From Candidatus Woesearchaeota archaeon (lineage in GTDB: Archaea; Nanobdellota; Nanobdellia; Woesearchaeales; JABMPP01): DNA of 64,000 nucleotides. The position numbers and the translations under genes are program-made. Of this stretch, positions 2,410 through 60,123 are shown piece after piece (position 1 is the stretch's first letter; each line of letters opens with the position of its first letter). The stretch lies in assembly GCA_018303405.1 (NCBI GenBank), contig JAGVYD010000011.1, positions 15,257-79,256 of the forward strand, in the 5' to 3' direction. The notes below the pieces were generated by a model. That model ran no database searches and was not told where the DNA came from. It saw only the letters and a program-made list of their open reading frames with translations.

Positions 2410-2481
2410 CATTTTAATTGCATATAACTGCATACTAATAAAACCCATTTTGAATGGCCAGACCAAAAAAGACCCCTAAGA

Positions 2482-3342: not shown

Positions 3343-3366
3343 GCAAAATGCCTGCTGAGCGAAACC

Positions 3367-4158: not shown

Positions 4159-5464
4159 CCTTAACCATCTGACAAAAATCGAGGGCCATGCAACATTGGC
4201 GCTTCAAATCGATGGCATGCAAATCAAGAAATGCGAGCTGAGCTCAGTCGAAGGCTCGCGCTATTTTGAGGGAATTCTGAAAGGGCATTACTATTATGAG
4301 GCCAGCGAGATTTCCTCGCGGATCTGCGGAATATGCAGCTGCGCCCATACAGTGGCTGCCATAATTGCGATCGAAAGGGCACTTGACGTGACCCCGAGCC
4401 CACAAACTGTGGCGCTGCGAAAGCTTTTGACAATAGGGGAGCGCATCAGAAGCCATGCCACGCACCTTTATTTTCTTGCCCTGCCTGATTACCTTGGCTA
4501 TGAATCAGCGCTCTCGATGCTGCCAAAGTACAAAAAAGAAATCCAGCGCGCTCTGAAAATGATGAAAGTCGGCAATGAAATCATCAAGGTTGTCGGTGGC
4601 CGCGACCTGCATCCGGTCAGCGCAACAGTCGGCGGATTCCTGAAATTCCCACCGCCTGAGCAAATTCTGGACCTCAAGACAAAGCTTGGCTCAATTGCAG
4701 GAGACGTGGAAGAGACAGCCAAATTCATAGGCTCCCTGAAAAATCCGGATTATTCGCACAAGACTGAGTATTTTTCACTTTATAACGGCAGGACATACTC
4801 AATCTTCATGGGACACATCAGGTCAAAAAGCAATGATTTCACGCAGAAGGAATACCACAAGTACATAAAGGAATACCATGAGCCATATTCAACTGCCAAC
4901 TTTGTGGTAAAAGAAGGCAAAAGCTACATGGTCGGGGCGCTGGCAAGGCTGAACAACAACCACAGCCACCTGAATCAGCCGGCAAAAAAACTGGTAAAAA
5001 GCCTTGGATTAAAATTCCCCGTCACCAACCCGTTCATGAACAACCTGGCGCAGGCAATAGAGCTGGTGCATTATGTTGACCGGGGCATGGAGATTTGTGC
5101 CAGCCTGAAGAATGTGGCGTCCGAGCCATTGAAAAAGATCCAGGTGAAGGAAGGGCACGGCATATCAGCAATAGAAGTCCCGCGCGGGACGCTCTGGCAC
5201 GAATATGTGCTCGACAAAGAGGGCAAAATCACTTATGCAAATATTGTCACACCGACTGCGCAAAACCTCAGGAACATGCAGGATGACATAAGGGACCTGC
5301 TGCCGGGCATACTCCATCTGCCCAACAACCAGCTTGTTGTGGAAATTGAGAAGCTGATAAGGAGTTATGACCCATGCTTTTCATGCTCAACTCATTTTCT
5401 GAAAGTAAAGTGGCTCAAGGGCAGCAAGAACAGGAAGATTCCAAGCCAAAAAAGTAATAAATAA
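4142..5464 (+). CDS. hydA: [NiFe]-hydrogenase large (alpha) subunit
   Basis: 440 aa. N-terminal RICGICSCAH (RxCGxCxxxH) and C-terminal DPCFSCSTH (DPCxxCxxH) Ni-Fe ligand motifs. A short tail after the His is the expected substrate for a maturation endopeptidase. Confidence 0.9.
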   Translation: MTETISLNHLTKIEGHATLALQIDGMQIKKCELSSVEGSRYFEGILKGHYYYEASEISSRICGICSCAHTVAAIIAIERALDVTPSPQTVALRKLLTIGERIRSHATHLYFLALPDYLGYESALSMLPKYKKEIQRALKMMKVGNEIIKVVGGRDLHPVSATVGGFLKFPPPEQILDLKTKLGSIAGDVEETAKFIGSLKNPDYSHKTEYFSLYNGRTYSIFMGHIRSKSNDFTQKEYHKYIKEYHEPYSTANFVVKEGKSYMVGALARLNNNHSHLNQPAKKLVKSLGLKFPVTNPFMNNLAQAIELVHYVDRGMEICASLKNVASEPLKKIQVKEGHGISAIEVPRGTLWHEYVLDKEGKITYANIVTPTAQNLRNMQDDIRDLLPGILHLPNNQLVVEIEKLIRSYDPCFSCSTHFLKVKWLKGSKNRKIPSQKSNK

Positions 5465-5478
5465 AAAAAATAATATTC

Positions 5479-6210
5479 TTATGCCAGCTTCCTGTAAACA
5501 TCGCCGTACAGGGAATAGCTGAACACTCCAACCACAAAAAACATCACTGCCAGGCCTATGAACAGCACCAGGTTGAGCAAGGCGGCAATTATGGCTGAGC
5601 ATATCAGCACAATTATCCATGTCAGGAAATAGTCTCCAGAAAAGGCCATGCCGAGCACTTTCCTGAACTGGAACGCGCTGCCAAATTTATTGGTTGCAAC
5701 GTAGTTCAGGACAGCCATCGGCAACATGTACCATGCCAAAAGCGCAAACAGGAATGCCAGCAACAGGATTGGCGCAAATGCCATTACCGCAGGAACTGCC
5801 TGGTACCAATTTTGCCTCAGGATAGCTTCAAGCGCCGCAGCATCGCCACCACCGGCAGCGAACTCCTTAACCATGTCAATCGGCACAATTGTCCCAACAT
5901 AGGTCCTGAAAAGCGAAACCAGGAAGGTTGCCGAGCCAATCATTGCGATGATCAATGCGGGAAGCATGTAAATTACAGTAATAACTGTTGAGGCAAGCCC
6001 CTTCACAAACATTTCACCCCAGTTTTCCCATTCCTGCAATTTGGCCGATGCCTTAACTTTTCCAACACCTGATGATTCCAGGATGTAACCCTTTGTAAAC
6101 CATTTAACAATTGGTATGAGGCTCAGGAGAACCCCTATAATGAACGCTTTCCAATTTGTAAATGGCTTCTTTATAGCTTTCGCAAAATCTACCATCTTTT
6201 CACCACCCAC
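5479..6210 (-). CDS. Hypothetical polytopic membrane protein
   Basis: 243 aa with several hydrophobic helices (e.g. FIIGVLLSLIPIV, LAFLFALLAWYMLPMAVL). No recognisable catalytic motif. Confidence 0.4.
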   Translation of the reverse strand: MGGEKMVDFAKAIKKPFTNWKAFIIGVLLSLIPIVKWFTKGYILESSGVGKVKASAKLQEWENWGEMFVKGLASTVITVIYMLPALIIAMIGSATFLVSLFRTYVGTIVPIDMVKEFAAGGGDAAALEAILRQNWYQAVPAVMAFAPILLLAFLFALLAWYMLPMAVLNYVATNKFGSAFQFRKVLGMAFSGDYFLTWIIVLICSAIIAALLNLVLFIGLAVMFFVVGVFSYSLYGDVYRKLA

Positions 6211-9143: not shown

Positions 9144-10058
9144 GTGCCAACAACAAACGAAATAGTGAAAATTTATACAAAAATACACTCTATTAGGGCA
9201 GTTTCCCGGCAGACTCACATTTCGAGGACAAAAATTAGGAAAATTCTTATTGAAACCGGAATCAGAATTCCAGATAGCAGAACGGCCCAACTGGCTGTAG
9301 GTTATATCCAAGAAAAGAAGAAGTTCTGCCTTTCTCCTCAAGAAAAAGCCTATTTATACGGGTTAGTGATGGGTGATCTAACTCCTATCCTGAAATCTAA
9401 ATATACTTTAAAACTTATCACAACTTCTACTCATAAAACTTTCATGGAAATGCTATGTAAAACTTTTAAAAAATACGGGATAACTAATCATAAGGAAACT
9501 AAAAATAAAAATACGTTTAGGTTTCAAAGTCACATTGATCTGGAAAGTTTTTTATTTCTATTGGATACAAAAAACAAATGTATGCCTACTTGGATAAAGG
9601 CTCATAACTTTTACAATTTCCTTGGCGGGTTTATAGACTCTGATGGCAGTATTATTGTTAGGAAATCTGGCAATTACTTTCAATATGTTATTAGATTTTT
9701 TAGTCAGAATCTGGACCTTCTGCTTGAAATAAAAAGTAAACTGAAATCCATTGGATATCATCTTTCCATACACAAAAGTCATTCTAAGGGCCACATTAGT
9801 TATCATAAAAACGTAAAGTTTCAATACAACAGGAATTATTATACTCTTGAAACCTACAAAAAGGAAGAAACTTTAGATTTACTGGGAAAGATACCTATTA
9901 GACACCCCGAAAAAATTGCAAAAAAGAACCTGATATTTGATATTTATCGTCGAAAACTTGTATTGTGGAAAGATATTGAAAATCAAGTCAAAGAATTAAG
10001 AGAAAAAATAAGACAATCAGTAATACAAAGAAAGGCACTATCATCCCCAATATGTTAA
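9144..10058 (+). CDS. Free-standing LAGLIDADG homing endonuclease with N-terminal HTH domain
   Basis: 304 aa with two LAGLIDADG motifs (LYGLVMGDLTP and FLGGFIDSDGSIIV). N-terminal about 45 aa looks like a helix-turn-helix. Encoded in AT-rich DNA. The 3' end overlaps the 3' end of rtcB by 71 nt on the opposite strand. Confidence 0.8.
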   Translation: MPTTNEIVKIYTKIHSIRAVSRQTHISRTKIRKILIETGIRIPDSRTAQLAVGYIQEKKKFCLSPQEKAYLYGLVMGDLTPILKSKYTLKLITTSTHKTFMEMLCKTFKKYGITNHKETKNKNTFRFQSHIDLESFLFLLDTKNKCMPTWIKAHNFYNFLGGFIDSDGSIIVRKSGNYFQYVIRFFSQNLDLLLEIKSKLKSIGYHLSIHKSHSKGHISYHKNVKFQYNRNYYTLETYKKEETLDLLGKIPIRHPEKIAKKNLIFDIYRRKLVLWKDIENQVKELREKIRQSVIQRKALSSPIC

Positions 10059-11511
10059 CGGTGCCTTTAATATTCCCAATCGGCTTCAACCCAACTACAG
10101 CCTTGGAAATCCCGCTTTCTTCAACTGCCTCAACAACATCAGAAATATTCTTGTAGGCGAATCCTGCTTCCTCGGCCAGGCCTGACATTGAGGCAGCCTT
10201 AACATAAATCCCCCTTGCTTCCATGTCTTTCTGCAGCTTGTCTCCGCGGATGTCATGCTTTGCCTTTGCCCTGGACATTGTCCTGCCTGACCCGTGGCAT
10301 GTGCTGCCGAAAGTCTCTTCCATTGCCTTGTCGGTCCCGACAAGAAGGTATGAGCCTGTTTCCATGCTTCCTCCTATGATGACGGGCTGGCCTACTTTCC
10401 TGTAAGCAGGAATCAGTTCGGCATTTCCCGGCCCGAAGCTCCTGGTCGAGCCTTTCCTGTGTATAACCAACTTTTTCTTTTTTCCATCAACCTTGTATTC
10501 CTCAACTTTTGCAATGTTATGCGCGACATCATAGACAAGGTTCATTCCCATTTCCTCGTCTGACCTTCCAAAAACCTGGGAAAACCCCTTCCTGACCTGG
10601 TGCATTATTATCTGCCTGTTCGCAAACGCCATGTTTGCTGCGCAAGTCATGGCTGCAAAATAATCCTTGCCTTCCTTGCTGTTGAATGGCGCGCATGCAA
10701 GCTGCCTGTCCTTGACGGTTATATCATATTTTTTCATTGCATCCTCAAAAGTGTGCAAATAATCTGTCGCAACCTGATGCCCAAATCCCCTGCTGCCGCA
10801 ATGAATCATTATCACAACCTGGCCATCCTGGTCAATGCCAAAAGCCTTGGCTGTTTTTAAGTCGTAGATGCTGTTCTTATATGCCACCTGGATTTCCAGG
10901 TAATGGTTGCCGCTCCCCAATGTGCCAAGCTGGTTCATTCCTCTTGAATATGCCTTATCGCTGATTTTAGCCGGGTCAGCGCCCTTAATCGCGCCCTTCT
11001 CCTCTATCCTGTCTGTGTCCTCTTTCCAGCCGTAGCCATTGTCGACGCACCATTTTGCGCCGTCCACAATGACTTCCTTGAACTGCTGCTTGTTCAATCT
11101 CAAAAAACCCTTGCCGCCCACTCCCACTGGAACGATTTTGAACAATGTATCAACCAGCAGCTTTAATTTTGGCTTGACTTCATCATATGTCAAATTCGTG
11201 CGGATTAAGCGCATGCCACAATTTATGTCAAAGCCAATCCCTCCCGGGGATATTATCCCCTCATCCAGGTCAAATGCCGCAACACCGCCTATCGGGAAGC
11301 CATAGCCCCAGTGGCCGTCAGGCATGCACAAAGCAGCTTTCTGTATTCCTGGAAGGCATGCAACATTTGTAATCTGGTCATACACTCCCTCATCCATGCC
11401 TTTCATCAATTTGTCTGTCGCATAGATCCGGGCAGGAACATTCATGCCCTCTTTGTATGTTACCGGTATTTCCCAGACGCCCTTTCCAATGTTTTTAATG
11501 CCAGTTGCCAT
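9988..11511 (-). CDS. rtcB: tRNA-splicing ligase RtcB
   Basis: 507 aa with conserved RtcB blocks (CLPDGHWGYGFPIGG, GFDINCGMRL, HNHA-like region). Carries an unusual 24-aa hydrophobic C-terminal extension encoded antisense to the homing endonuclease. Confidence 0.9.
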   Translation of the reverse strand: MATGIKNIGKGVWEIPVTYKEGMNVPARIYATDKLMKGMDEGVYDQITNVACLPGIQKAALCMPDGHWGYGFPIGGVAAFDLDEGIISPGGIGFDINCGMRLIRTNLTYDEVKPKLKLLVDTLFKIVPVGVGGKGFLRLNKQQFKEVIVDGAKWCVDNGYGWKEDTDRIEEKGAIKGADPAKISDKAYSRGMNQLGTLGSGNHYLEIQVAYKNSIYDLKTAKAFGIDQDGQVVIMIHCGSRGFGHQVATDYLHTFEDAMKKYDITVKDRQLACAPFNSKEGKDYFAAMTCAANMAFANRQIIMHQVRKGFSQVFGRSDEEMGMNLVYDVAHNIAKVEEYKVDGKKKKLVIHRKGSTRSFGPGNAELIPAYRKVGQPVIIGGSMETGSYLLVGTDKAMEETFGSTCHGSGRTMSRAKAKHDIRGDKLQKDMEARGIYVKAASMSGLAEEAGFAYKNISDVVEAVEESGISKAVVGLKPIGNIKGTVNILGMIVPFFVLLIVLFFLLIL

Positions 11512-26098: not shown

Positions 26099-27895
26099 AT
26101 GGGTCTTTGGTATATCCCCAATATGGGAGAACAACGATTAGGGAATGCACTCGATGCCGGATTTCTAAAATTTGCCGAGCTAGTTGATTCCCTGGCAGTG
26201 GATCTCACCGGAAAAAGAAAAATTGTCCAAATTAAAACAGGAAAAAGCCTCAGGGAAATAGTAGGTGAGTATTTCGAGGGAACTGACAGGAACTTTGGGC
26301 CTCTGGAACTGGATCCCAATGAATACAGGACTCTACTGGATGAACTTACCAAAACAGCAGCGCACCCATTAAATGTTGTTCAAAAATCAAAAGGCAATTT
26401 TCAGGCATGGATGGCATATGAGGATAAGCATAGAGAAAAATCTGAAATGCTCAGAAGGGGAACGAAAAGAGTTGCCAAAATTACAGATGCTGTGATGGGG
26501 GGCGTTAATGCAATACAGGCAGTTTACACACTTGAATCATCTCACGGGGTAGAATTTGCGGCACCTCTTGCAATATCTGCGTATCTTCATGCCCGTGATT
26601 TTTTTAATAACCAAGGAAAGTTGTCTACAGCGGAAAGAAATTTAGGACTATTCTTTGCATCCCTGCCAGCTCTCGGGCAGGGAGTATATTATATGATAAC
26701 TGGAGATCAGCAATTCGGTGATTCTGCTCTTTTATACTCTGCCGCGCCGGTAATGATGTTGATTAATGGCACACTTATTCCATTCTTTAAGAGAAATGAA
26801 TTACTCCCGGATCATTTGTACAACAAATCAAAAAGAATAGCAAGGGCATTGATGATGCCAAAGGATATCAGGGTTCAGTCAAAGAAGTTAGAGAATGTGC
26901 TCAAGGAAATTGAAAATTTCAGAGGCATTGAAGAAATCAATTCTGTAATTTATCAGGATCATGTGGCTGATTTTGAAGCCGAGGTAATAAAATACCTGGA
27001 AGGTCGATCAGGAATTTCGGATGTCAGGAGGGTTGCAGAAAATATTCACGATGAAAAGACCATTAAGCGAATTAACGCTGCAAGAGGGCACTTTGAATAC
27101 GCGGTTGCGGAACCAGAGCCAGTGGAAAAAAAGCCAGAAGTGATTATGCATCCAGCTACCTACCAGCTTGCTTTAAATCTCGGTGCTGATGAACAACTTG
27201 CCAGAAAAATTGGAAATTCTATTCAGCAGGAAAATGCAGAGCTAACTCGCAACAAATTGCAGGGAATTGTACAATCAAGTTATGAGGCTGTGCTGCAGGC
27301 AAATCCAGCTATTCTTCTGCTGAGCGGCAAAGACAGAAAAGCATATTTCAGCTTGCTTTCTGACACATTAGGGAGGGTTCGTTCAGAATTTGGGGATTCT
27401 CCATTGGGCATATTTACCCCGGAACAAAATCCAACTGCATTTTCTACTATTGCAGGACTGGGATATCTGAATTCAAGACTAGATGACGTCAAAAGAGAAG
27501 GGCGCAGCGATGCAATTGCATCCCCTCCTGACGCAGAATGGATACAAAAACTTGCCAATGATGGCTATACAAACTTTGAATTGGTCAAGGCAATACTGAC
27601 AGAAGGGTTCAGGCTTGGGCAAAGCAGGCCGAGGATTGGGATGCAGTATTCTGACTTCATCACAATTCGCAGGCAAACAGCCAAGGCAGTAAGTTCAAGG
27701 GATATGCAAGAATACAATAATTATTTCAGAAGGTTGATATCTGATGGCGTCATTCTCATGGACAAAGATTACAAGAGTGGCGGCGGGAAGTTCGGTGCAT
27801 GCCACAGCCTTAATCCGCAGGTCAATGAAATCTTAAGGCCCGGACTGAGGGAATATGTTGCACAGCAGCTTTATGCCAAGGGCACGGCTGCATAA
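26099..27895 (+). CDS. Large hypothetical protein (598 aa), no recognisable domain
   Basis: Long uninterrupted ORF with normal composition and no motifs I can assign. One hydrophobic segment (LGLFFASLPALGQGVYYMI). Monocistronic, immediately upstream of tRNA-Leu. Confidence 0.4.
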   Translation: MGLWYIPNMGEQRLGNALDAGFLKFAELVDSLAVDLTGKRKIVQIKTGKSLREIVGEYFEGTDRNFGPLELDPNEYRTLLDELTKTAAHPLNVVQKSKGNFQAWMAYEDKHREKSEMLRRGTKRVAKITDAVMGGVNAIQAVYTLESSHGVEFAAPLAISAYLHARDFFNNQGKLSTAERNLGLFFASLPALGQGVYYMITGDQQFGDSALLYSAAPVMMLINGTLIPFFKRNELLPDHLYNKSKRIARALMMPKDIRVQSKKLENVLKEIENFRGIEEINSVIYQDHVADFEAEVIKYLEGRSGISDVRRVAENIHDEKTIKRINAARGHFEYAVAEPEPVEKKPEVIMHPATYQLALNLGADEQLARKIGNSIQQENAELTRNKLQGIVQSSYEAVLQANPAILLLSGKDRKAYFSLLSDTLGRVRSEFGDSPLGIFTPEQNPTAFSTIAGLGYLNSRLDDVKREGRSDAIASPPDAEWIQKLANDGYTNFELVKAILTEGFRLGQSRPRIGMQYSDFITIRRQTAKAVSSRDMQEYNNYFRRLISDGVILMDKDYKSGGGKFGACHSLNPQVNEILRPGLREYVAQQLYAKGTAA

Positions 27896-27994: not shown

Positions 27995-28078
27995 GCGGAG
28001 GTGCCGGAGCGGCCAAACGGGATGGGCTTAGGACCCATTGGCTTAGTGCCTACGCAGGTTCGAATCCTGTCCTCCGCA
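27995..28078 (+). tRNA. tRNA-Leu (anticodon UAG), type II with long variable arm
   Basis: Folds manually: acceptor GCGGAGG/CCTCCGC, 3-bp D-stem, anticodon stem ATGGG/CCCAT with loop CTTAGGA (anticodon TAG), about 15-nt variable arm, T-loop TTCGAAT, discriminator A. Confidence 0.8.
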
Positions 28079-28167
28079 TTCTTAATTCTCAGTTTATAGA
28101 CGAGAAAATCCAAAAGTCAGACATTAATTGACAAAGCTTTTTAAACTTTGAAGTAGTTACTTTACCG

Positions 28168-28626
28168 ATGAACCAACCTAAGTTTATTTACAAATTTGAA
28201 AATCATTTCTCACCAGTTCATCTTATCGATAGTCATGAAACTAAAATGAGATTTGACATATTTGGTTTAAGTGGCATCTGGGATTCAACGGAGTTAAGTA
28301 ACTTTATTATGGTTGATACGCCAGGACAATCAAGTCATATTGAACCTGCAAGTTTAGAATTGATTGGTTCGGTTTACCTTGGCCCAAGAAAATTTATTAT
28401 GAAACGAGCGGCCGAATATGGTAATCGGGAAGTTGTTCAGATTTCAGATTATCGTGAGATTTTATCAGAACTTATCAATGAAACATCAGAAATAGCTACA
28501 AATGGCAATTATGCTTATTACAGTTTAATGACCACTACTCAAAGATTAGGTAAAACATCAGAACAGGAAAGTCAGTTTCTTTTGCACCCTACAGCGCAGT
28601 TATATATTCAAAAAACCAATTCTTGA
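28168..28626 (+). CDS. Hypothetical protein (152 aa) in AT-rich island
   Basis: ORF in about 33 percent GC DNA immediately 3' of tRNA-Leu. No recognisable motif. Confidence 0.3.
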   Translation: MNQPKFIYKFENHFSPVHLIDSHETKMRFDIFGLSGIWDSTELSNFIMVDTPGQSSHIEPASLELIGSVYLGPRKFIMKRAAEYGNREVVQISDYREILSELINETSEIATNGNYAYYSLMTTTQRLGKTSEQESQFLLHPTAQLYIQKTNS

Positions 28627-28689
28627 TTTCATGGAGATTTCAATTCCCTTTCAGAAACATTTAAATATCAAGCTGCCTAAGAGAATAAT

Positions 28690-28827
28690 ATGTCAGACAC
28701 AATAACAATACCAAGAACTGAATATGACAATCTCAGGAAGAAGGCCGAAATAGCAGATGATATTATCTTGCAGCTTGAAAGCAGTTTAAGAGACGCTGAA
28801 GCCGGAAGAGTAAAAAGAGTTGCCTAA
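28690..28827 (+). CDS. Small ORF (45 aa), possible antitoxin-like protein
   Basis: MSDTITIPRTEYDNLRKKAEIADD... Short, charged, helical-looking peptide. Convergent with the RelE-like gene and overlapping it by 4 nt. Weak call. Confidence 0.2.
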   Translation: MSDTITIPRTEYDNLRKKAEIADDIILQLESSLRDAEAGRVKRVA

Positions 28828-29207
28828 ACAGATTCAATTATTTTTCTGTATCTATCTTTATTGGCAATTATATGATTAATAATCTGCTGCTGTTCCTTCT
28901 TTGAGCCGAAAGAGACAAGCAAGATTTTGGAGATATCTGTGTATATCAGGTAATACATTCTTTTGTTTCCAAATTTCTTCTCCCTAAACCAGTCAAACCT
29001 GAGAGGCTTCCCAGTTTTTGGATTTTCAATCAGCTGCTGCTTGATTTTATCAACCCACTCCTGCTCAGCAGTTTCCATGGCTTCATATAGCTTGGAGAAA
29101 GTCTCTGTTTCGAATATCTGATGTGCCATAAGCAAATTGTGTAAAAGGAGGTTTATTAAATTATTCATTCGCCTCTCCTTGGAGGTTACCAAACATTTTA
29201 TACTCAC
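28824..29207 (-). CDS. RelE/ParE-family toxin-like protein
   Basis: C-terminal GKPLRFDWFREKKFGNKRMYYLIYTDISKILLVSFGSKKE matches the RelE/ParE core (conserved R...R...Y, beta strand LIY). A likely real start is the internal Met near 29129 (MAHQIFETETF...). No cognate antitoxin on the same strand upstream. Confidence 0.45.
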   Translation of the reverse strand: MSIKCLVTSKERRMNNLINLLLHNLLMAHQIFETETFSKLYEAMETAEQEWVDKIKQQLIENPKTGKPLRFDWFREKKFGNKRMYYLIYTDISKILLVSFGSKKEQQQIINHIIANKDRYRKIIESV

Positions 29208-29638: not shown

Positions 29639-30274
29639 TCAATCCTTCTGACGCTTATGCTCTTCGCCCTTTTCTTCCTTTTGTTTCCTTTTCCTTGATT
29701 TTCTCCTGTAAATCAGATAGCCAATGCCTGCGAGAATGGCAATCAGGATGACCCAGTCCCATGGGATTGGGTGGGTTGTAAAGAATGAAAGCCCTTCAGG
29801 CGGGACCAGCTCTTTTTCATACGGGGCTTCGACCACGCTTGGCGTTGCCGCGAAATCAAGCGTTGCATAAAGCTTCTGCATCTCTGACTTTCCCTCAGCC
29901 AGTCTGCTTATCGGGCCGTACATTGTAAGAAGATAAGTGTGGTCCTTGTACGGGTAGCGGCTGAAAATGAAAAAGACTTCTTTGTTCGCAATGACTGCCT
30001 CCTCAATATCGCCAATCTTTCCAGTGCTTTCAATCTTGCCTTCGATCGACAGGGCGAATTCCTCAGTCCCAACCAATTGGCTCTGGCTGGCCTTTATATC
30101 CAGATACAAGTCATTTCCTTTCACAAATTGCTGGCTCGCGCTGTTCTGCTCATAGATATCCCAGCCCGGCAGCTCAAAAATAAGGTACGCCTGCTGGTAG
30201 GCTGAGGCAGGCGCCATCAGCATAACCATTGCAATTATCAGGATGTGTATTTTGCAACCCATTTTCCCACCCAC
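29639..30274 (-). CDS. Secreted, C-terminally membrane-anchored hypothetical protein
   Basis: 211 aa. Signal peptide (ILIIAMVMLMAPASA), extracellular domain, C-terminal TM helix (WVILIAILAGIGYLIY) and a lysine-rich tail. Confidence 0.4.
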   Translation of the reverse strand: MGGKMGCKIHILIIAMVMLMAPASAYQQAYLIFELPGWDIYEQNSASQQFVKGNDLYLDIKASQSQLVGTEEFALSIEGKIESTGKIGDIEEAVIANKEVFFIFSRYPYKDHTYLLTMYGPISRLAEGKSEMQKLYATLDFAATPSVVEAPYEKELVPPEGLSFFTTHPIPWDWVILIAILAGIGYLIYRRKSRKRKQKEEKGEEHKRQKD

Positions 30275-32082
30275 AGGAGCAAGTTTTCCTTTAGTCCCCC
30301 GCTCACCTCTATCTTGCCGTTGTTCCAGGCTTCCTTCAATCTCATCTCGCCTGAAGCGAGCTTAAGGAATGTTTCCTTGTCAATTGTGACTTTGTATGTC
30401 GCAGGCTTTGCTGTGCCGATATTCACGTCTGTCAAAGCGTAGCTTTCCAATGCGAAGTATGCCTTAAAGTCTGTATCCTTGTCATTGTAATTTCCAAGGC
30501 CCGGCACGATTATCTGCACTGTATTATATTTTCCATCAATCAATTTATCGAAAAAAACATATGCCCCCCTGCCCCGCAGGTCCTGCAGAAGGGTGGATAT
30601 CCAACCCTCATCCTTTGCCTCCTTTTCATTTTCCGCTTTGATTGCCTGGCCGTATGCTTCCGACTGGCCAACGGCGATATCAGCGCTCATCTGCTCAGCG
30701 CTCTTCAGGTTTTCAATGGCTATTGATTTGATTGCCTTGAGCCACTCGCCGTCCCTCTTGTCATGGTTTATCTCTTCCACAATTGCCATGAGCTTGTCCA
30801 TTGTCTCAGGCTGGCTGGCCATGTCCATGTGGCCATAATTCACAGATTCTGTGCTTGTTGCCCTGTCCCATTGGAAGCCTTTCTTGTGCACGGTCTCGTC
30901 GCCTTCAAGGGAATCGACCCTGACAAATCTCCTGGCAGTGAACTGGAATGGAAAGGCCAATGGCATGCTTAATCCATCAGGCCCTGTTATCATCTGGTCG
31001 GTGTCATAAGTCTCGTAAGATGTGAAAATCTCGTCCTTGACAACAAACTGCTGGGTCGTATTCTTATTGTCGCCATGAATTATCGCAATCCTTATGGAAT
31101 CATCAACCTTAAGATTGTCGAATTTCTGGCGAAATGCCTTTGTCTGTGCATAGATTCCCTTGCTCAGCCCTGAATATTTTTGCTCGAGGAATTTTGTGAC
31201 CTCCCCCTGGCTTGTTATTCCTGCATCCCTCATCTCAGCAAAATCCTGGCTCGGTATGTGCCTTGCCTGCTGGTAATTTATCCCTTTAAGGAATGTTTCA
31301 TCAAGCGAGACCAGGCTGCCGTCTTTTGTTGTGAACTCGTGGTTAGGCGAAAGATGGAACACACCTGGCCAGTTGTGGCCAATTTCCCAGACATGGTTGA
31401 TTGTAATTAATGCCGTTGCATCGAAATTATACCCCTCTGTCAATGACTGGAAGCCGCGGGGCGCGCCATTAAGCGGGCTTGACAGGAAAATAACACCTGC
31501 AACCTTGTCGGGATTTTCAGCTGCATACATCTTTGCCTGCAGCCCCCCCATGCTGTGCGCAACAAGAATCACCTTGTCTGATTTTGTCTCCTTCAATACC
31601 TCCTTCACTTTTTTATCAAGGCTTTTTTCAATCTTGTAGAGCTGGTCATCAGTAGGGAGCCTGAAATCATAGGGGTGGTCAAAATATGCCTTGCCCTGGT
31701 AGGTCAGGCCGCCCACGTAGCCGTTGAAAGTGTAGGGGGTCTTGGTGTTCATGTAATCGTAGAATCCTGTATAAATTTTTTTGAAGCCCCAAACAGTCCT
31801 CAGGACATACTTGGGCTCAATGTCAGAGCCCTCTATCACTGGCGTTTTCCCATCATCCTTCAATGCCAGCTCCATCCTGTCTTCCTGGGGATTTCCTGGC
31901 CAGAGATTGTCTGCCATGGTCCAGCGGTTGTTGTCATCCAGTGCTGACCCCATAATGCCAGGAACGAAAATTATCGGGGAATGGTAAGGAGCTTTTGCCT
32001 CATAGCCAAAGCCCTGCACATAGAGTGCACTGGCTCCTTGCACCATAAGAAGAAATAACACAACTAAAATTATCCCCCTCAT
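30238..32082 (-). CDS. Secreted LCAT-like alpha/beta-hydrolase lipase with C-terminal SCP2-like domain
   Basis: 614 aa with signal peptide. VPGIMGSAL and AHSMGG (GxSxG nucleophile elbow) fit the lecithin:cholesterol-acyltransferase/lipase family. The C-terminal about 100 aa (...LKLASGEMRLKEAWNNGKIEVSGGLKENLLLW) resembles the SCP2 sterol-carrier fold. Confidence 0.55.
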   Translation of the reverse strand: MRGIILVVLFLLMVQGASALYVQGFGYEAKAPYHSPIIFVPGIMGSALDDNNRWTMADNLWPGNPQEDRMELALKDDGKTPVIEGSDIEPKYVLRTVWGFKKIYTGFYDYMNTKTPYTFNGYVGGLTYQGKAYFDHPYDFRLPTDDQLYKIEKSLDKKVKEVLKETKSDKVILVAHSMGGLQAKMYAAENPDKVAGVIFLSSPLNGAPRGFQSLTEGYNFDATALITINHVWEIGHNWPGVFHLSPNHEFTTKDGSLVSLDETFLKGINYQQARHIPSQDFAEMRDAGITSQGEVTKFLEQKYSGLSKGIYAQTKAFRQKFDNLKVDDSIRIAIIHGDNKNTTQQFVVKDEIFTSYETYDTDQMITGPDGLSMPLAFPFQFTARRFVRVDSLEGDETVHKKGFQWDRATSTESVNYGHMDMASQPETMDKLMAIVEEINHDKRDGEWLKAIKSIAIENLKSAEQMSADIAVGQSEAYGQAIKAENEKEAKDEGWISTLLQDLRGRGAYVFFDKLIDGKYNTVQIIVPGLGNYNDKDTDFKAYFALESYALTDVNIGTAKPATYKVTIDKETFLKLASGEMRLKEAWNNGKIEVSGGLKENLLLWVGKWVAKYTS

Positions 32083-32166
32083 TTCAAAATCCTATACCTA
32101 ATCCTATTTAAATATTGGTTTTTCAAGAAGAGGATTTACATATATTTTGAAACATCCCCAGAAATT

Positions 32167-32352
32167 CTATTTCTGCCTGCTCCTGATTGACTTTCCTGTC
32201 TGCCAGCCCCAGCTTCTTACCCTGGCCGAATTCCCATAGCCGCAGCTTGCGCAGGTCTTCCTGTTCACATGGTAGGAATGCCTTCCGCATCTCCTGCAGC
32301 GTATATGGCTGCCAGACTTGTTGTGCTTACCCTTTGAAGGCGTTCCTTTCAT
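32167..32352 (-). CDS. rpl37e: Ribosomal protein L37e
   Basis: 61 aa with C4 zinc ribbon [20 protein letters not shown], diagnostic for L37e. Confidence 0.9.
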
Positions 32353-32398: not shown

Positions 32399-32635
32399 TT
32401 AATCGGAAGATATCACTGTTATTGTGTCTCCCCTTAAGAAGACTGAGTTGAGCTTGCGTTTTATCTCGCCGTCAATTCTCTCTTCACAATCCTCAAGAAC
32501 CACATTGATATGGATGTCAAAAGCTTTTAGCTTCCCAACATACTGCCTGCCGTTCTTCAATTCAACCAATACTCTTTTGTCTCTCGCTCTGTTCAATGTG
32601 TCCAAAGGCCTTGATAATTCTGGCATATAAAACAC
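32399..32635 (-). CDS. Sm-like archaeal protein (SmAP/LSm)
   Basis: 78 aa with Sm1 (VLVELKNGRQYVGKLKAFDIHINVVL) and Sm2 (VFLRGDTITVI) motifs. Classic L37e-LSm gene pair. Confidence 0.85.
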   Translation of the reverse strand: MFYMPELSRPLDTLNRARDKRVLVELKNGRQYVGKLKAFDIHINVVLEDCEERIDGEIKRKLNSVFLRGDTITVISSD

Positions 32636-33258: not shown

Positions 33259-34719
33259 TTGTCACTTTGGAATAGCTATTTAAATCAGGAACCATGGCTA
33301 CTGCCCGTGGAAGACACTCTGACCAGAAGCCATATCAGGAACTTAATTAACGGCGATAGTTTCAGGCCCATACCCATTTTTCCCATCAGCCCGCGCTATT
33401 ATGCAATGGTGTTCCCGAATCGTGCTTACCTGCTTCTATCCCATGAACTCATTTCAGATTGGCAAATTCAGTTCCCAAGCGAAAAAAAACGGCGCATTGG
33501 GCAATGGTCGCGGGGCATGACTGAGCAGGAGCATGAGCCGCTTTTCCCAATACCTGATGAGCATCTGGAAATTTTGGGCAGCCCAAAAGCCCTTGAGGAG
33601 AAAATCAGGCAGGGAATAAGGAATATGCACGGCAGCTACAAGATGTGGGACAATGCCTGGCACCAGGTTGTTTCCGAAGCCACCATCAATGGGCCCAATG
33701 TCTACGGCGTGGTGGATTCCAAGAGAAGCAGGAGCATGCGAGCAAGGAAGGAAATGAGGGGGCATATGCATGACCCTGGGTTTGCCAACGCATTCATCGA
33801 GCATGGAAAATTTCCTGACAACCTCAAGTCATTCTCAACTTCGCCTGATTTCGCATTTACAACCAGGAAAACAGGCACGACCCTGGATTACAAGGATGCC
33901 ACCCTATGCACGCTCCTGCATTATGTTGAAAAAGTGACGCAGGGCGATCCGCGCGATTATGCCCGGAACGGATTGCTGATTTCGCATCCCCCTCCAAAAA
34001 ATTCAGAGCTGGCCATACTTTATGACAACCAGAATCCTGGCAATTCTGCCTTGGCGCAGGAAGCCATTTATGCCCGGTTTGGACTCGACAAATCATTGTA
34101 CGCCCTGGACAGGAGACTGTTCAGGCACAGGGAAGCGCTGAGGGCATGGGCGCAACACTATCTGGATAACGACCCAAGCATTCATTTTGCTGTTGTCCGG
34201 CAGGCGCTGAAGGAGCGCGATGCTGTTGCACTGGCCAGGCCAGACGCAGCCAAAAAAATAGCAGAAAGGAAATACGCCTCAAGGCTGATCCACCAGCACC
34301 TTTCGGGCATGGACATGAGAAAAGTCGGCAATGTTGTGATGTTTGCCGGCACGCCGTATGAAACAGTGGGGGTAAGGTTTGAAAACAGGCTTGAATATGC
34401 AGAAGTGGCCCTTCTTGGCGCAATGGAGGACGATGTGTACCTTGTTGTCCAGGGGCAAAGGACATTTGCCAGGAGAAATCTCACTGATGACGGCCATGAG
34501 GTGTATGACGGGAAGCATCCAATTGCCTTCCTCTCCACCAGGAATTCCGATATGCCGCTCAATATCATGAATGACAGCACAAAAACAAGGTCGCCGGCGC
34601 GCATCCAGATCGTCGGCAATTTCAACTATACCACGGAACATAAAAGAATGTACAGGCAGCTTCTTGAGAAGCATGCAGGCGACAGGAAGGAACGGCTGAT
34701 TAGGGATTTAAGGCTTTGA
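33259..34719 (+). CDS. Hypothetical protein (486 aa), unknown function
   Basis: Long ORF with noticeably higher GC than its neighbours (many antisense shadow ORFs). No recognisable motif. The true start may be internal. Confidence 0.35.
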   Translation: MSLWNSYLNQEPWLLPVEDTLTRSHIRNLINGDSFRPIPIFPISPRYYAMVFPNRAYLLLSHELISDWQIQFPSEKKRRIGQWSRGMTEQEHEPLFPIPDEHLEILGSPKALEEKIRQGIRNMHGSYKMWDNAWHQVVSEATINGPNVYGVVDSKRSRSMRARKEMRGHMHDPGFANAFIEHGKFPDNLKSFSTSPDFAFTTRKTGTTLDYKDATLCTLLHYVEKVTQGDPRDYARNGLLISHPPPKNSELAILYDNQNPGNSALAQEAIYARFGLDKSLYALDRRLFRHREALRAWAQHYLDNDPSIHFAVVRQALKERDAVALARPDAAKKIAERKYASRLIHQHLSGMDMRKVGNVVMFAGTPYETVGVRFENRLEYAEVALLGAMEDDVYLVVQGQRTFARRNLTDDGHEVYDGKHPIAFLSTRNSDMPLNIMNDSTKTRSPARIQIVGNFNYTTEHKRMYRQLLEKHAGDRKERLIRDLRL

Positions 34720-46842: not shown

Positions 46843-47982
46843 TTGGATACCCAAGCAAGCGCAAATTTTATATTGTTGGCAAAACAAGGTTTCTGGATGC
46901 TTTATATTGAAAAAAAATTCGAGTACGAGTTTGGGAAACGAAAACTGCTCATAACCTTTGACAGTGGCATGTACGGATTCATCTCCGGCATTATTGAACC
47001 AACCAACTTTCTTGAGTTCCTTCACGCTGCCTGGAGGAAATGCAAAGCTGCTGGCATGTTCCCCGCAATGGAATTTATGATAAGACGGAAAAGAAAAACG
47101 TTTATTGGCCGCGGCTCAAAAGCCGACATGAAGCCCAGTGAAACGTTCCGCGGAATTTACAGGATTTACCTTTACCCTGAGTCCATTTTTCCACTTGAGC
47201 AAAATCCAGGATTTGCATGGGCAGTTTCAAGCACACTCAACAAGTTGAGCCGATTCAAGGCCATTGGCGCATTGCTAAGGAAAACAGTGGAGCATGAAAT
47301 TGCGCATGTGAAGCATTATGCGACGGGCAAGGCCGTGAGGGCAAGAATTCTTGTGCTGGACCGGCAACGGGAAAAAATGAACAAATTCCACGAGCATCTA
47401 AATCAGCTTGCTTACAGTGGCACGGGGATATCTTGGAAGCAATCTGGATTGGCTGATGAATTCATATCCTTGAGGATGGATTTGTTTTTCTTCATTGAAA
47501 ATTTTCAAGCCGAGGGCATTGCCATGTATGCAGAGCTCTGCGTTGAAAAAAGCTCATTTGACATGTACTCAGAAGTGAAAAAGACATATCGCAAAGGCAA
47601 AAGATACGTTAAGTCCCTGAAGCTTCGCTTTGAGCCAACCAGTTCCCTTACAGAAGACAGGAAATTCATTCAGGAAATCAAGGAAGGCAGGTCAAGGAGC
47701 GCCCCCTACAGAATAGGCCTGCACATGGTTCTGGCAGTCATGCAGCATTTCCGCCTGGACATCGACAGAATAATGCAGCTTTCACCAATTGCATTCATAA
47801 AACACTATGAAACTGCTGCCATGGCATTGGATTTGAAGCCATTGGTCAGCGTCAATGGCGGGGCCGGGATTTTTGATTATGCAGAGACTCTCAGGAAAAT
47901 CATGAAATATTACAAGTCACAGGGCCTGGATGATGTTTATGAGGTATACAGGAAATGGAAACTGGATGACGGATTATCCTGA
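46843..47982 (+). CDS. Hypothetical protein with HExxH motif (possible Zn-dependent peptidase)
   Basis: 379 aa containing VEHEIAHVKHY, an HExxH signature. No other recognisable features. Confidence 0.3.
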   Translation: MDTQASANFILLAKQGFWMLYIEKKFEYEFGKRKLLITFDSGMYGFISGIIEPTNFLEFLHAAWRKCKAAGMFPAMEFMIRRKRKTFIGRGSKADMKPSETFRGIYRIYLYPESIFPLEQNPGFAWAVSSTLNKLSRFKAIGALLRKTVEHEIAHVKHYATGKAVRARILVLDRQREKMNKFHEHLNQLAYSGTGISWKQSGLADEFISLRMDLFFFIENFQAEGIAMYAELCVEKSSFDMYSEVKKTYRKGKRYVKSLKLRFEPTSSLTEDRKFIQEIKEGRSRSAPYRIGLHMVLAVMQHFRLDIDRIMQLSPIAFIKHYETAAMALDLKPLVSVNGGAGIFDYAETLRKIMKYYKSQGLDDVYEVYRKWKLDDGLS

Positions 47983-54047: not shown

Positions 54048-56585
54048 TTATATCCAAAGCCACGCCAGAAGATACAACCCAAGAATTGCAAGTGCAGAAA
54101 CCATGGCAGAAACCTTTTCAAGTGCATTCAGCTCAACCTTCAAAATTATCTCATTCCCTGCCCTGGCTTTCATCAATATCAGGTACTCTGTGGATGACAG
54201 CACAGGAATCTCTTCCCCTCCCATGTACGCATGCCACCTCGGGAAATAATGTTCCTTAAACACAACCCAGTCCCCATCCTTAAAGTTGCCGGTGATTACA
54301 ATTTCGTCCTGCTTAATGCGCTTCCATGGCAATGGTTCATATGCAAAGCTTTCCGGCATTTGCTGATAGCCTCCTATGTCATACCACCCCTCTTTTGGCA
54401 GCAGGCTCACAGCCACAAAGCCGCCTTCCAGTTTTCTTAAGTCTTCAAGCATTGCCTCAGGCGCCACAATGACTTTTTCAGAATAAAAACTGTAGTTCAT
54501 CTTAAGTATGACATCACAAAGGTATTCCTTGTTCTGGTAAATCGGATAGGCCTGGCCCTGCATAAGAACCTGGACAACAGACCTGCCAAGCGGCTCGCAG
54601 GCATTGACAAAGACGTACTGGTAGCCTCCTGCCCGGAGATAATTCCCGAACTCTATGCTTGTCAAATTTTGCAGGGCAGGGGTAAACCCCCATGAATGGG
54701 AGCTGTGAATTTTCGTGTAAACTGTTTTTGACTCATCGAACTGGTTGAATTCGTACCTGGCAGTATACCTGTCTGTCAGTATGTGCACAGCTGGGTCAAA
54801 GGCGTTTGAGAATATTGCATAAGTAATCATCCTGCCATCCATCGACAGCTTGCTGATAAAATCCAGCTCAGATGAATACCTTTCACCATTTATGACACTT
54901 TCCTTATGTATCCCCGTGAAATTCTCAATCTCAAATGGCACAGTGGCAATGATTCCAATGAGCAGGATGGCCGCAAGCAAAATCCTCAGCCATTTTGATT
55001 CCTCATTGATTACAATGGCAATGACTGCTGCAAAAAATACCAGCTGGTGGAACATCAGTATCCTGTCCCCATACTCAATATTGCCAACTGTCGGGAACAG
55101 GTTTGCAAATGATGAGACAACCATGGCAATCACGAAGGTTGCCGCCAGGATGCGCGCCATTGTGAAGGAGCCTTTTTTCCAGCGCAGCAATGCCCAGAGA
55201 ATCGCAAGGGCGCCAAGGGCTGACAGGAATGGCCCCATCTTCTTGTCATCATTTCTCAGCGGGTCAGGGTGCCTGAATGAGAACGGCGTGTCGTCGACGA
55301 AAAAATGCCTGAAATATTCCACTATTTCATGGGTGTCAAACCTGACGCTCTGCCCCGCTCCCCTGTTGAAATCACGATAATACAGATTTGGCGCAAGATA
55401 GAACAGCAGGACCATGAAAGCAATCACAACCAAAAAAATTTTGATGCGCTCTTGTTTTATATGCCTGGCAAGCTCCTTTCTTCGTGACCATAAGCTGTCT
55501 TTCTGCGTCTGCAGCAGCAGCAAAATTGTCCCGGAAAAAATAATAATGCCGAGCGTATTCGCAGGGTGCGTGACTATCATAAGTGCGCCATAAAGAAACA
55601 TGAGCCCGAACTCATCAAGGCCCCTTGGATTATCCAATGCCATTGACAAGATAAGAAGGCCGATTGGCACAGAAAACATCATCTTATAGCTTTCCAGGAA
55701 CTGCAGGGACACGAAATTAATGCCAACAGCAGCCGAGGCAAGGCCGAAAATGTATGGCGTGGCAAAAGATTCCTTTTTTGTGCAGCTTGCAATGATGAGG
55801 TAAGTGCCCAGCATGATCATGAAAAGGATGAACAGCTGGAATGAATTCCAGAAAAGCACTGGCTCAATCCCGCCAAGGAACATGTACACCAGCCCGATAT
55901 GGCTGTAAGATGCAGGGGAATCTGCCAAATACGCAAACTCCCCATTTGCCATGTAAGGCTGGTAATGCGGAAATTCGCCAAACTTGCCAATGTCCTTCGG
56001 GATAACATAAAATTTCGAATACAGCCAGGTCCCGTTCGAATTGAACAGGTTTCCATCTTCAAGTATGTAGTGGCCGACTGTGAAAATTGCCAGGAAACAT
56101 ATTATCAGGGCCTTTGCTTCCTTCCCATCAACCTTTATGAGGGTTGAATATTTTTTCTGGAAAATGGCCTTGCTAAGCAGCAATGCAGCTGGAAAGAAAA
56201 ATGTGGCCAGGATAGTCCAGGATGTCAGGGGGATGCGCGCAAAAATTGTAGTAATGTAAACCAGCAGGGTCGCGAACACGGCCAAGCCCCATCCCATCAA
56301 GTACCTCTTTATGAATCCAGACTTATTCAGCAAAAGCCCAATGGCAGAAAAGGGAAGGTAGATGGCAAAAAATACAAAGAAGCTGAACACTGCTGAGCCC
56401 GCTGCCAGAACATAAAGGAAGTTGCTGATTTCCCTGTCGAGCCTGTTCCTCAAAAAAAATAATACAACCCAAGCTATTGTGGCAGGGATCAATACCGTCT
56501 TCAGAACAAAAGACAAAACAACAATATATATGGCCAATAGCCACAATGTTGCATGCTCTGTTGCCCGAATCTTGATAACTTTCAT
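54048..56585 (-). CDS. Large polytopic membrane protein (845 aa), candidate glycosyl/oligosaccharyl-transferase
   Basis: About 15 TM helices over 520 aa, then an about 300-aa C-terminal soluble domain. Lies in a cluster with two SDR epimerases and a DPM1-like GT2. No canonical STT3 WWDYG motif found. Confidence 0.45.
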   Translation of the reverse strand: MKVIKIRATEHATLWLLAIYIVVLSFVLKTVLIPATIAWVVLFFLRNRLDREISNFLYVLAAGSAVFSFFVFFAIYLPFSAIGLLLNKSGFIKRYLMGWGLAVFATLLVYITTIFARIPLTSWTILATFFFPAALLLSKAIFQKKYSTLIKVDGKEAKALIICFLAIFTVGHYILEDGNLFNSNGTWLYSKFYVIPKDIGKFGEFPHYQPYMANGEFAYLADSPASYSHIGLVYMFLGGIEPVLFWNSFQLFILFMIMLGTYLIIASCTKKESFATPYIFGLASAAVGINFVSLQFLESYKMMFSVPIGLLILSMALDNPRGLDEFGLMFLYGALMIVTHPANTLGIIIFSGTILLLLQTQKDSLWSRRKELARHIKQERIKIFLVVIAFMVLLFYLAPNLYYRDFNRGAGQSVRFDTHEIVEYFRHFFVDDTPFSFRHPDPLRNDDKKMGPFLSALGALAILWALLRWKKGSFTMARILAATFVIAMVVSSFANLFPTVGNIEYGDRILMFHQLVFFAAVIAIVINEESKWLRILLAAILLIGIIATVPFEIENFTGIHKESVINGERYSSELDFISKLSMDGRMITYAIFSNAFDPAVHILTDRYTARYEFNQFDESKTVYTKIHSSHSWGFTPALQNLTSIEFGNYLRAGGYQYVFVNACEPLGRSVVQVLMQGQAYPIYQNKEYLCDVILKMNYSFYSEKVIVAPEAMLEDLRKLEGGFVAVSLLPKEGWYDIGGYQQMPESFAYEPLPWKRIKQDEIVITGNFKDGDWVVFKEHYFPRWHAYMGGEEIPVLSSTEYLILMKARAGNEIILKVELNALEKVSAMVSALAILGLYLLAWLWI

Positions 56586-60014: not shown

Positions 60015-60123
60015 GACTATCGGCAATAGGGACGGGAATCAATAGCGATTATAACTTTAAAATTACATCGCGTCGGGGAATTTTATGTTCCCCCCGTTTT
60101 TACCAGATTTTTGTTAAAAATCT

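Follow-up and report, generated by a model that had tools for sequence, protein, structure and literature searches.

A signal peptide-bearing LCAT/LPLA2-like hydrolase with a C-terminal SCP2-fold domain and a conserved partner gene in a woesearchaeotal archaeon

What use would an archaeon expected to have ether lipids make of an exported acyl-ester enzyme that carries its own lipid-carrier module? The question is raised by the gene at positions 30238..32082 (minus strand) of the window, i.e. the whole analysed stretch of 64,000 nucleotides, for which the original prediction had proposed a secreted lipase/acyltransferase of the LCAT family fused to an SCP2-like domain. The open reading frame is intact, begins with ATG and encodes 614 amino acid residues; since full-length homologues are found at E-values from 0 to 1e-45, it is not a chance reading frame. 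The protein matches exactly GenBank KHO45361.1 of the archaeon GW2011_AR3, annotated as a 'hypothetical protein'. The archaeal host assumed in the prediction is thus confirmed by this match and by the S8e and L37e ribosomal proteins and LSm encoded on the flanks of the hydrolase gene. GW2011_AR3 has been assigned to the Woesearchaeota (DPANN), described as having small genomes and limited metabolism (PMC5006420). The organism is a tiny groundwater archaeon that probably depends on a host. With a DPANN archaeon as the source, the idea of an action on the membranes of a host or partner gains in relevance.

Concerning export, the only hydrophobic segment of the protein covers residues 1-23, as expected of a Sec signal peptide; a membrane anchor is not seen in the hydrophobicity windows, in agreement with the predicted secretion. 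The signal peptide itself—residues 1-19, 32026..32082 (minus strand), MRGIILVVLFLLMVQGASA followed by LY—ends in ASA, the cleavage site being placed by the AxA rule; the alanine at position -1 (A19) is at least 90% conserved and the AlphaFold2 model has low pLDDT over the signal peptide. An equivalent N-terminus is present in 36 of 37 homologues, the exception, P0005, being an N-terminally truncated entry. A TATA-box-like element read from the sequence, TTTAAATA (32105..32112, minus strand), lies 23 nucleotides upstream of the ATG; its putative promoter role is based on the usual position of the archaeal TATA box and suggests that the cassette of the hydrolase and its partner gene (see below) may be transcribed from a separate promoter into an mRNA that is leaderless or has a short leader.

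The N-terminal approximately 400 residues are an α/β-hydrolase of the LCAT/LPLA2 type (residues ~20-424; 30811..32025, minus strand), with accessory elements as in LPLA2, LCAT and Tle4. The Pfam LCAT model (PF02450) matches residues 131-398 with E=7e-12 and a score of 45.7 bits, the cut-off being 21; the scores among relatives reach 100 bits, and PGAP1 is matched with 33.7 bits against 24.3, so that the LCAT/PGAP1-like assignment holds. Both motifs on which it had been based, VPGIMGS (residues 40-46) and AHSMGG (residues 175-180), occupy columns that are invariant or nearly so in the 37 homologues, the stretch H176-S177-M178-G179 being identical in 37/37 sequences. Down to approximately 28% identity, S177, D395 and H418 are invariant in the same alignment, as is the N-terminal PxxxxPGxxGxxL strand; G394 and T397 are invariant, too. 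Ser177 (codon 31552..31554, minus strand) is the predicted nucleophile, located in a GxSxG-type elbow (AHSMG) within the stretch AHSMGG that aligns with the nucleophile elbow of solved lipases. The order Ser-Asp-His is that of LCAT and LPLA2 and, from this order and the invariance, Asp395 in GD(E/G)TV (codon 30898..30900, minus strand) and His418 (codon 30829..30831, minus strand) are predicted to be the acid and the base of the triad. The invariance of the elbow, the aspartate and the histidine in both clades argues for retained catalysis, and a protein with an inactive hydrolase domain that just binds or transfers lipids—a reading considered since transport alone can be the task of an SCP2 fusion, with nothing specific in its favour—seems hardly credible.

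The structural likeness to LCAT and LPLA2 extends past the α/β core into the cap and the membrane-binding accessory regions. The matches to PGAP1 and to palmitoyl-protein thioesterases, on the other hand, span the generic core only and score far below those to LPLA2 and Tle4. This speaks against a self-directed role, in which the enzyme, like PGAP1 or palmitoyl-protein thioesterases, would transacylate or deacylate the cell's own scavenged lipids, lipid-anchored proteins or glycolipids, with the partner as a membrane adaptor; moreover, the surface genes neighbouring the cassette in the window are not conserved beside it at other loci, and we know of no acylated archaeal surface substrate in the woesearchaeotal lineage, so that such envelope remodelling appears quite improbable. 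As for further features of the family, the protein from the window contains no cysteine, nor do 12 of the 14 other archaeal-clade sequences; the two cysteine-bearing exceptions, P0011 and P0012, have a long extra C-terminal extension. Some proteins related through the catalytic domain alone, P0043 and P0048, carry a Zn-dependent phospholipase C (PF00882) as fusion partner.

The AlphaFold2 model of the whole protein (pLDDT 90, pTM 0.87) contains two further elements. The first is a long two-stranded β-hairpin arm at residues 342-391 (30910..31059, minus strand), with strands 342-366 and 372-391 according to DSSP; it is longer in the archaeal clade, corresponding to an insertion with respect to the bacterial clade at alignment columns ~455-490. 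The second is a helical stalk that joins the two domains (residues 425-515; 30538..30810, minus strand), modelled as helices 425-439, 441-463, 467-485 and 492-515 at a pLDDT of ~81-96; its NHDKRD motif is conserved, N439 at a level of at least 90% in the 37-sequence alignment. The pTM of the whole protein suggests that the catalytic and C-terminal domains may be held in a fixed arrangement.

The last approximately 100 residues (~516-614; 30241..30537, minus strand) form the SCP2-fold domain, putatively lipid-binding, an assignment supported by profile and fold evidence with sequence scores below the thresholds. Of the Pfam assignments named in the original prediction, the LCAT one (PF02450) thus lies above its cut-off and the SCP2 one (PF02036) does not. 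The isolated domain gives three weak Pfam matches, all from the SCP2 clan (PF02036, PF14864 and PF17844) and all below cut-off: Alkyl_sulf_C with 25.0 bits against 27, SCP2 with 19.6 against 21.3 and SCP_3 with 17.8 against 38. Within the family, 14 of 27 members match SCP2 at E≤1, the best at 9e-6, and the family profile pairs its 'AyksgkvkvsG' with the human SCP2 stretch 'AFFQGKLKITG' (E 1.4e-3). The domain has the helix and the Gly-rich strand motif (..A(F/Y)..GK(L/I)k(I/V).G..) characteristic of SCP2 as well as its α/β fold, i.e. it is not a generic β-sandwich, which had been named as the finding that would speak against the proposal. No full-length member of either clade lacks it.

It should be noted here that the SCP2-like C-terminal domain of alkylsulfatases is a proposed substrate-recruiting module. 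As Alkyl_sulf_C is the Pfam model that the C-terminal domain matches best, this fits an ordinary nutritional extracellular lipase or esterase that would find its substrates in groundwater sediment, be they free neutral lipids, wax esters, sterol esters or polyesters, the SCP2 domain recruiting the substrate without any symbiosis. The profile of the nucleophile region, with its strongest matches to secreted bacterial triacylglycerol lipases (E 8e-11), also favours this reading, as do the TCA-cycle genes in the genomes of some bacterial members, which may be free-living; on balance, we regard it as rather unlikely.

Two observations go beyond the original prediction: the same architecture occurs in Patescibacteria and Dehalococcoidia, and a conserved partner gene lies downstream of the hydrolase gene. 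The partner (29639..30274, minus strand), recognized from its open reading frame, hydrophobic windows and synteny, overlaps the hydrolase gene at the latter's 3' end, has its probable ATG start at 30262 and encodes an orphan protein of 211 residues. It consists of a signal peptide (..APASA followed by YQQ), an ectodomain of ~145 residues, an HPIPW motif, a transmembrane helix at ~170-190 and a Lys/Arg-rich tail; from this layout, we infer a type-I membrane protein whose ectodomain would lie at the external surface of the cell membrane. An archaeosortase-type sorting signal was not called in its transmembrane tail, the matches to sorting-signal models being weak (E>0.06). A homologue directly downstream of, and overlapping, the hydrolase gene is found in 9/9 archaeal loci, and in none of the five bacterial gene neighbourhoods; one homologue was retrieved by word-indexed search and the others were identified by reading the loci. 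In the explanation preferred below, the partner is translationally coupled to the hydrolase gene. It has no match in Pfam, NCBIfam or the PDB, its profile finding nothing at E<0.7 in the PDB, the chains of 4r1d included.

A secreted hydrolase followed by a membrane-anchored protein could also be a toxin-immunity pair, i.e. a membrane-attacking effector, directed at bacteria or at the host like the T6SS phospholipase Tle4 is at its targets, with an anchored inhibitor that would shield the producer in the manner of Tli4, any lipid harvesting being incidental. This reading overlaps with the explanation preferred below and is possible, albeit at a fairly low probability: an archaeon with ether lipids should need no immunity against an acyl hydrolase; the partner is missing from the bacterial clade, where immunity would be needed most; it resembles neither Tli4 nor any solved protein; and the SCP2 domain is left unexplained. 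In addition, no secretion-system genes adjoin the cassette in the window, and the scanned open reading frames of the window include no T6SS genes (VgrG, Hcp, PAAR). At two other loci, L016 and L017, a T4SS-like cluster adjoins the cassette; it was looked for in the window and is absent there, and it is treated as lineage-specific. A horizontally acquired island has also been considered and is unsupported, the gene having a GC content of 0.48, which matches that of the window, and a position between LSm/L37e and S8e.

With regard to the distribution, the fused architecture is rare, with approximately 13 full-length clusters at 50% identity in 1.84 billion proteins, so that the family cannot be a general route of lipid uptake in DPANN and CPR. 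Only a minority of the ~55 members have been given a taxonomic name; the named archaeal ones belong mostly to Woesearchaeota/Nanoarchaeia and the named bacterial ones to Patescibacteria and Dehalococcoidia, the latter with two members. In the neighbour-joining tree, the archaeal and bacterial clades are reciprocally separate and no direction of transfer is indicated. The bacterial clade is not regarded as exclusively CPR: besides the two Dehalococcoidia, there is the bacterial locus L015, where genes for aconitase and isocitrate dehydrogenase adjoin the hydrolase gene. The LCAT/LPLA2 family is rare in Archaea—no PF02450 homologues are found in 427 archaeal reference proteomes surveyed (PMC6355812)—and KHO45361.1 is one such case. 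No description of an SCP2 and LCAT combination in archaea has been found in the literature. The fused design and the orphan partner family are an addition to the known catalogue, even if the enzyme is an ordinary scavenging lipase.

For an organism in which ether lipids are to be expected, the export of an acyl-ester enzyme points to some interaction with lipids of the bacterial type. The best explanation, to which we give an about even chance, is that the two genes form a surface cassette in which a surface-associated phospholipase A or acyltransferase acts on the ester lipids of other organisms, the lipid being handled by the SCP2 domain. The gene, its export signal, both folds, the conserved triad, the conserved fusion and partner and the identity of the host are the observations behind it; the substrate, the direction of lipid flow, the function of the partner and the ecological role are what we infer. 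Once exported, the enzyme would be retained at the cell surface, or controlled there, by the partner and would bind a foreign surface of ester-linked, bacterial-type glycerolipids, be it a host, a neighbouring cell or debris. An acyl chain would then be cleaved or transferred via an acyl-Ser177 intermediate with the participation of Asp395 and His418, and the SCP2 domain, presumably linked rigidly to the catalytic domain by the helical stalk, may shield the hydrophobic substrate or product—a fatty acid or a lysolipid—and hand it on. The role could be lipid harvesting, the breaching of another cell's membrane, or both. GW2011_AR3 is probably episymbiotic or host-dependent; a bacterial partner for it is hypothetical. 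To our knowledge, all hosts so far known for DPANN are archaea, with ether lipids that are not cleavable by an acyl hydrolase, and this counts against the explanation together with the rarity of the family, the bacterial members that do not look like CPR, the absence of genes for lipid metabolism around the cassette in the window and the sub-threshold SCP2 scores.

A bolder version, which we consider unlikely, sees the cassette as specialized for the harvesting of lipids by ultra-small prokaryotes that live as episymbionts (Woesearchaeota/Nanoarchaeia and Patescibacteria). From the membrane of a bacterial host, acyl chains would be stripped, or lysolipids made, by the LPLA2-like domain; the SCP2 domain would ferry them over the gap, and in archaea the complex would be received or docked by the membrane-anchored partner. 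If true, some DPANN archaea would exploit bacterial hosts with ester lipids, and a molecular source would be at hand for the lysolipid-rich membranes reported in CPR bacteria. We know of no protein so far assigned to the acquisition of membrane lipids in DPANN or CPR. Both groups are often devoid of lipid synthesis, which raises the question of how their lipids are acquired (PMC7414124, PMC7242380, PMC11035636). Within DPANN cluster 2, the synthesis of lipids is commonly incomplete, and a supply from outside, of archaeal or bacterial origin, may be needed (PMC7414124), by a recruitment mechanism not known in DPANN (PMC11035636); CPR bacteria are thought to draw lipids, including lysolipids, from other cells, phospholipase A being a cited route to lysolipids (PMC7242380). 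With a design common to an archaeal clade, mostly of Woesearchaeota/Nanoarchaeia, and a bacterial one including Patescibacteria, KHO45361.1, an exported enzyme of the phospholipase/acyltransferase type with a built-in lipid carrier, offers a clonable and testable candidate for the way in which such cells acquire or attack foreign lipids.

Among the known systems, lysosomal phospholipase A2 (LPLA2/PLA2G15) and LCAT (PF02450) share only ~15-18% identity with the protein, which occurs in prokaryotes, unlike its animal counterparts. A disulfide-stapled lid and cap is a trait of animal LCAT and LPLA2 outside the Pfam definition; for want of cysteines, these disulfides are absent from the archaeal clade, its two exceptions aside, and the hairpin arm of 50 residues, the stalk of ~90 residues and the SCP2 domain are added. 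The Tle4 (PA1510)/Tli4 pair (PDB 4r1d) is analogous in gene arrangement alone, the present system having a Sec signal peptide, no T6SS, an archaeal host, an SCP2 domain that Tle4 lacks and a transmembrane-anchored partner without sequence kinship to Tli4. In bacterial lipases of families I.1 and I.2 with their Lif foldase (Burkholderia LipA-Lif, PDB 2es4), a secreted lipase is likewise followed by the gene of a membrane-anchored helper, and the local profile match to family I lipases near the nucleophile is strong (E ~1e-10); the partner, however, has the opposite membrane topology to Lif, and with its lack of matches in Pfam, NCBIfam and the PDB, no gene for a Lif-family foldase is present downstream of the hydrolase. 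Finally, the SCPx thiolase-SCP2 fusion, MFE-2/HSD17B4 and the alkylsulfatases SdsA1, YjcS and Pisa1 (PF02036, PF14864) also have a C-terminal SCP2-fold module on an enzyme for hydrophobic substrates, where it binds lipid chains or presents them to the catalytic domain; what distinguishes the present fusion from all of them is its catalytic part, an LCAT-type serine hydrolase, and its predicted location, extracellular rather than peroxisomal or cytosolic.

The hydrolase is encoded by an intact ORF (30238..32082, -) starting with ATG, and its 614 residues include no cysteine. The original prediction of a secreted LCAT-type enzyme fused to an SCP2-like domain is well borne out in the N-terminal part: the single hydrophobic segment is N-terminal and ends ASA|LY, in agreement with a signal peptide, the motifs VPGIMGS and AHSMGG occupy residues 40-46 and 175-180, respectively, and Pfam LCAT (PF02450) matches residues 131-398 with 45.7 bits (E 7e-12; cut-off 21 bits). 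The PGAP1 and generic alpha/beta-hydrolase models of Pfam are above threshold, too, NCBIfam giving only nucleophile-elbow matches far under the cut-off. The SCP2 assignment, by contrast, was not recovered by Pfam above its cut-offs, the C-terminus showing just weak matches to Alkyl_sulf_C, SCP2 and SCP_3, all from the SCP2 clan. When a profile of this domain was compared with the PDB sequences, SCP2 proteins nevertheless ranked first (E 1.4e-3)—GKIEVSG of the hydrolase pairing with GKLKITG of an SCP2 protein—which argues against the generic beta-sandwich considered beforehand as the alternative.

The AlphaFold2 model of the hydrolase is of high confidence (pLDDT 90, pTM 0.87; input alignment of 37 homologues) and consists, in order, of the signal peptide, an alpha/beta domain (~20-424) from which a long arm, a beta-hairpin (342-391), extends, a stalk of four long helices (425-515) joining the two domains, and a small alpha/beta domain (516-614). 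In Foldseek against the PDB, LPLA2 and LCAT were on top (E 3e-13 to 1e-10), followed by the T6SS phospholipase Tle4 (4e-10) and, below it, the family I lipases (~1e-6).

A word-indexed search retrieved 39 full-length homologues, and another one, starting from the bacterial clade, added about 15 members. The stretches H176-S177-M178-G179 and G394-D395-x-T397 as well as H418 are invariant in the alignment, and so are P36, G42, G45 and L48 of the N-terminal strand. The neighbour-joining tree divides the family into an archaeal and a bacterial clade, most members being metagenomic contigs. The former covers the window protein and the homologues P0002-P0015, the named sources being two Nanoarchaeia MAGs, one Woesearchaeota archaeon, a bin labelled Methanosarcinales and a partial sequence labelled Hydrothermarchaeota; those of the latter are Candidatus Vogelbacteria, one Patescibacteria group bacterium and two Dehalococcoidia MAGs. 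Some bacterial-clade members may be free-living, since one of their contigs, L015, carries TCA-cycle genes. An exhaustive HMMER scan of 1.84 billion 50%-identity representatives yielded only about 13 full-length matches (at least 548 bits), the next scores falling to 257 bits and covering only profile positions ~40-410 within larger multidomain proteins. Some of the relatives sharing just the catalytic domain are fusions with Zn-dependent phospholipase C, class 2 lipase, beta-helix or T9SS-tail domains, all of these being strong on Pfam LCAT. A local HMM built from the C-terminal domain matched every family member and none of the ~130 such catalytic-only relatives; the hydrolase-SCP2 fusion, read as a single event, thus forms one rare and coherent family, intact down to ~28% identity.

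The adjacent partner gene (29639..30274, -), which shares 25-37 nt with the hydrolase gene at the latter's 3' end, encodes a 211-aa orphan protein with zero matches in Pfam, NCBIfam and PDB sequences. Its signal peptide, with an invariant AYQQ at the predicted mature end, is followed by an ectodomain of ~145 aa, the HPIPW motif, a single TM helix and a tail of basic residues. Its homologue lies directly downstream of the hydrolase gene, overlapping or abutting it, in all nine archaeal loci read (the window and contigs L001, L002, L003, L004, L010, L011, L012 and L016/L017), but is absent from all five neighbourhoods read in bacteria (L006, L008/L009, L013, L014, L015). The hairpin arm is longer in the archaeal than in the bacterial clade, a correlation with partner presence that is suggestive only. 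The exported protein thus described—a conserved Ser-Asp-His domain of the LPLA2/LCAT/Tle4 type plus an SCP2-fold domain—is co-encoded with a type-I membrane protein, which would tether or regulate it at the cell surface. The two could also constitute a toxin-immunity pair like Tle4/Tli4, a less likely reading that partly overlaps with the main one.

Directly upstream of the hydrolase gene are those for ribosomal protein L37e (32167..32352, -) and LSm (Sm-like; 32399..32626, -), a classic archaeal gene pair missing from the window ORF list, as both are shorter than its 80-aa minimum. The TTTAAATA box, 23 nt before the hydrolase ATG and downstream of this pair, suggests that the cassette of hydrolase and partner genes may have its own promoter. 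On its other side, the GC content falls after tRNA-Leu (27995..28078, +) to 0.386 (vs ~0.46) in a stretch with two orphan ORFs (28168..28626, +; 28824..29207, -), the second resembling RelE/ParE toxins by eye with zero Pfam matches; this region (27995..29207), at the border of the cassette, is possibly an integrated element of small size. The three nearest loci of Nanoarchaeia type (L001 9456..9869, L002 12508..12918, L016 2654..3067) share a conserved multi-pass membrane protein of ~137 aa beside the cassette, twice upstream and once downstream of it; a search of the window found no homologue. In L016, whose hydrolase is 61% identical, and at the start of L017, the cassette is directly followed by a type IV secretion/conjugation-like cluster (L016 6036..10618; TrbC/T4SS-pilin-like, DUF8186, TrbL-like, PrgI-like and VirB4/TraC-like ATPase genes), for which tblastn of the window gave no counterpart. 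L002, from a Nanoarchaeia MAG, has an ORF (4696..5649) recognised by eye only as IspH/LytB-like, unusual in archaea, which run the mevalonate pathway. Three bacterial-clade loci have small zinc-ribbon proteins (zf_Tbcl/zf_Tbcl_2) no more than a few kb away from the hydrolase gene (L013 1225..1530, L014 5078..5323, L015 2542..2904). L008 and L013 have RRM_1 RNA-binding proteins in common; both recurrences may reflect mere shared lineage of those genomes.

The hydrolase is identical to GenBank KHO45361.1 ('hypothetical protein QS98_C0011G0056') of archaeon GW2011_AR3, the neighbouring window proteins mapping to the same contig of 99 kb. NCBI lists GW2011_AR3 as an unclassified archaeon; in the literature it is placed, as an uncultivated member, in the Woesearchaeota, whose genomes are small and whose metabolism is limited (PMC5006420). 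The genes of the window, which covers 64 kb of the genome, are archaeal, among them ribosomal proteins S8e and L37e, LSm, RtcB, Gins51, diphthamide synthase and an S-layer protein. The window also contains a four-gene cluster (1441..5464, +) resembling a soluble (group 3-like) NiFe hydrogenase (4Fe-4S dicluster protein, NAD-binding/FeS subunit, Oxidored_q6 small subunit, NiFeSe_Hases large subunit), and, in a low-GC patch (0.356, 8-10 kb), an ORF (9144..10058, +) whose LAGLIDADG_3 domain is like that of homing endonucleases and whose end overlaps the RtcB gene (9988..11511, -) at the latter's 3' end. Another patch of low GC (0.344) is found towards the window end (60001..62000), and four large ORFs have zero Pfam matches: 26099..27895 (+, 598 aa), 33259..34719 (+, 486 aa), 46843..47982 (+, 379 aa) and 54048..56585 (-, 845 aa).

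The hydrolase would deacylate or transacylate ester-linked glycerolipids via an acyl-Ser177 intermediate, the SCP2 domain then shielding the lipid and handing it on. Lipid shielding and hand-over is the role proposed for the SCP2 modules of SCPx, MFE-2 and alkylsulfatases. As ether-linked lipids are expected in the archaeon itself, the enzyme would act on foreign substrates. A role in remodelling the envelope of its own cell is quite improbable. The woesearchaeal setting fits scavenging of lipids from a bacterial neighbour or an attack on its membrane; against this, known DPANN hosts are archaeal. A plain nutritional lipase, its SCP2 module recruiting the substrate, is a less likely reading that partly overlaps with the main one. 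Complete lipid synthesis is commonly missing in DPANN cluster 2, with possible reliance on lipids from outside, whether archaeal or bacterial (PMC7414124), the mechanism of recruitment being unknown (PMC11035636); CPR bacteria are thought to obtain lipids from other cells, lysolipids being abundant among them (PMC7242380), and for the CPR predator Vampirococcus a secreted phospholipase has been proposed to derive them (PMC8080830). Given its rarity, the hydrolase family cannot be a general answer to lipid acquisition. No PF02450 homologue was present among 427 archaeal reference proteomes surveyed (PMC6355812). Family members are labelled 'hypothetical protein' or 'alpha/beta fold hydrolase' in databases; literature searches combining SCP2, LCAT and archaea found no description, and those combining DPANN, lipid and SCP2 led to other proteins. 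Both domains are of known kinds, their combination being one for which no published description was found. As LPLA2, LCAT and Tle4 lead the Foldseek ranking, the modelled hydrolase shares with this group its accessory elements besides the hydrolase core.
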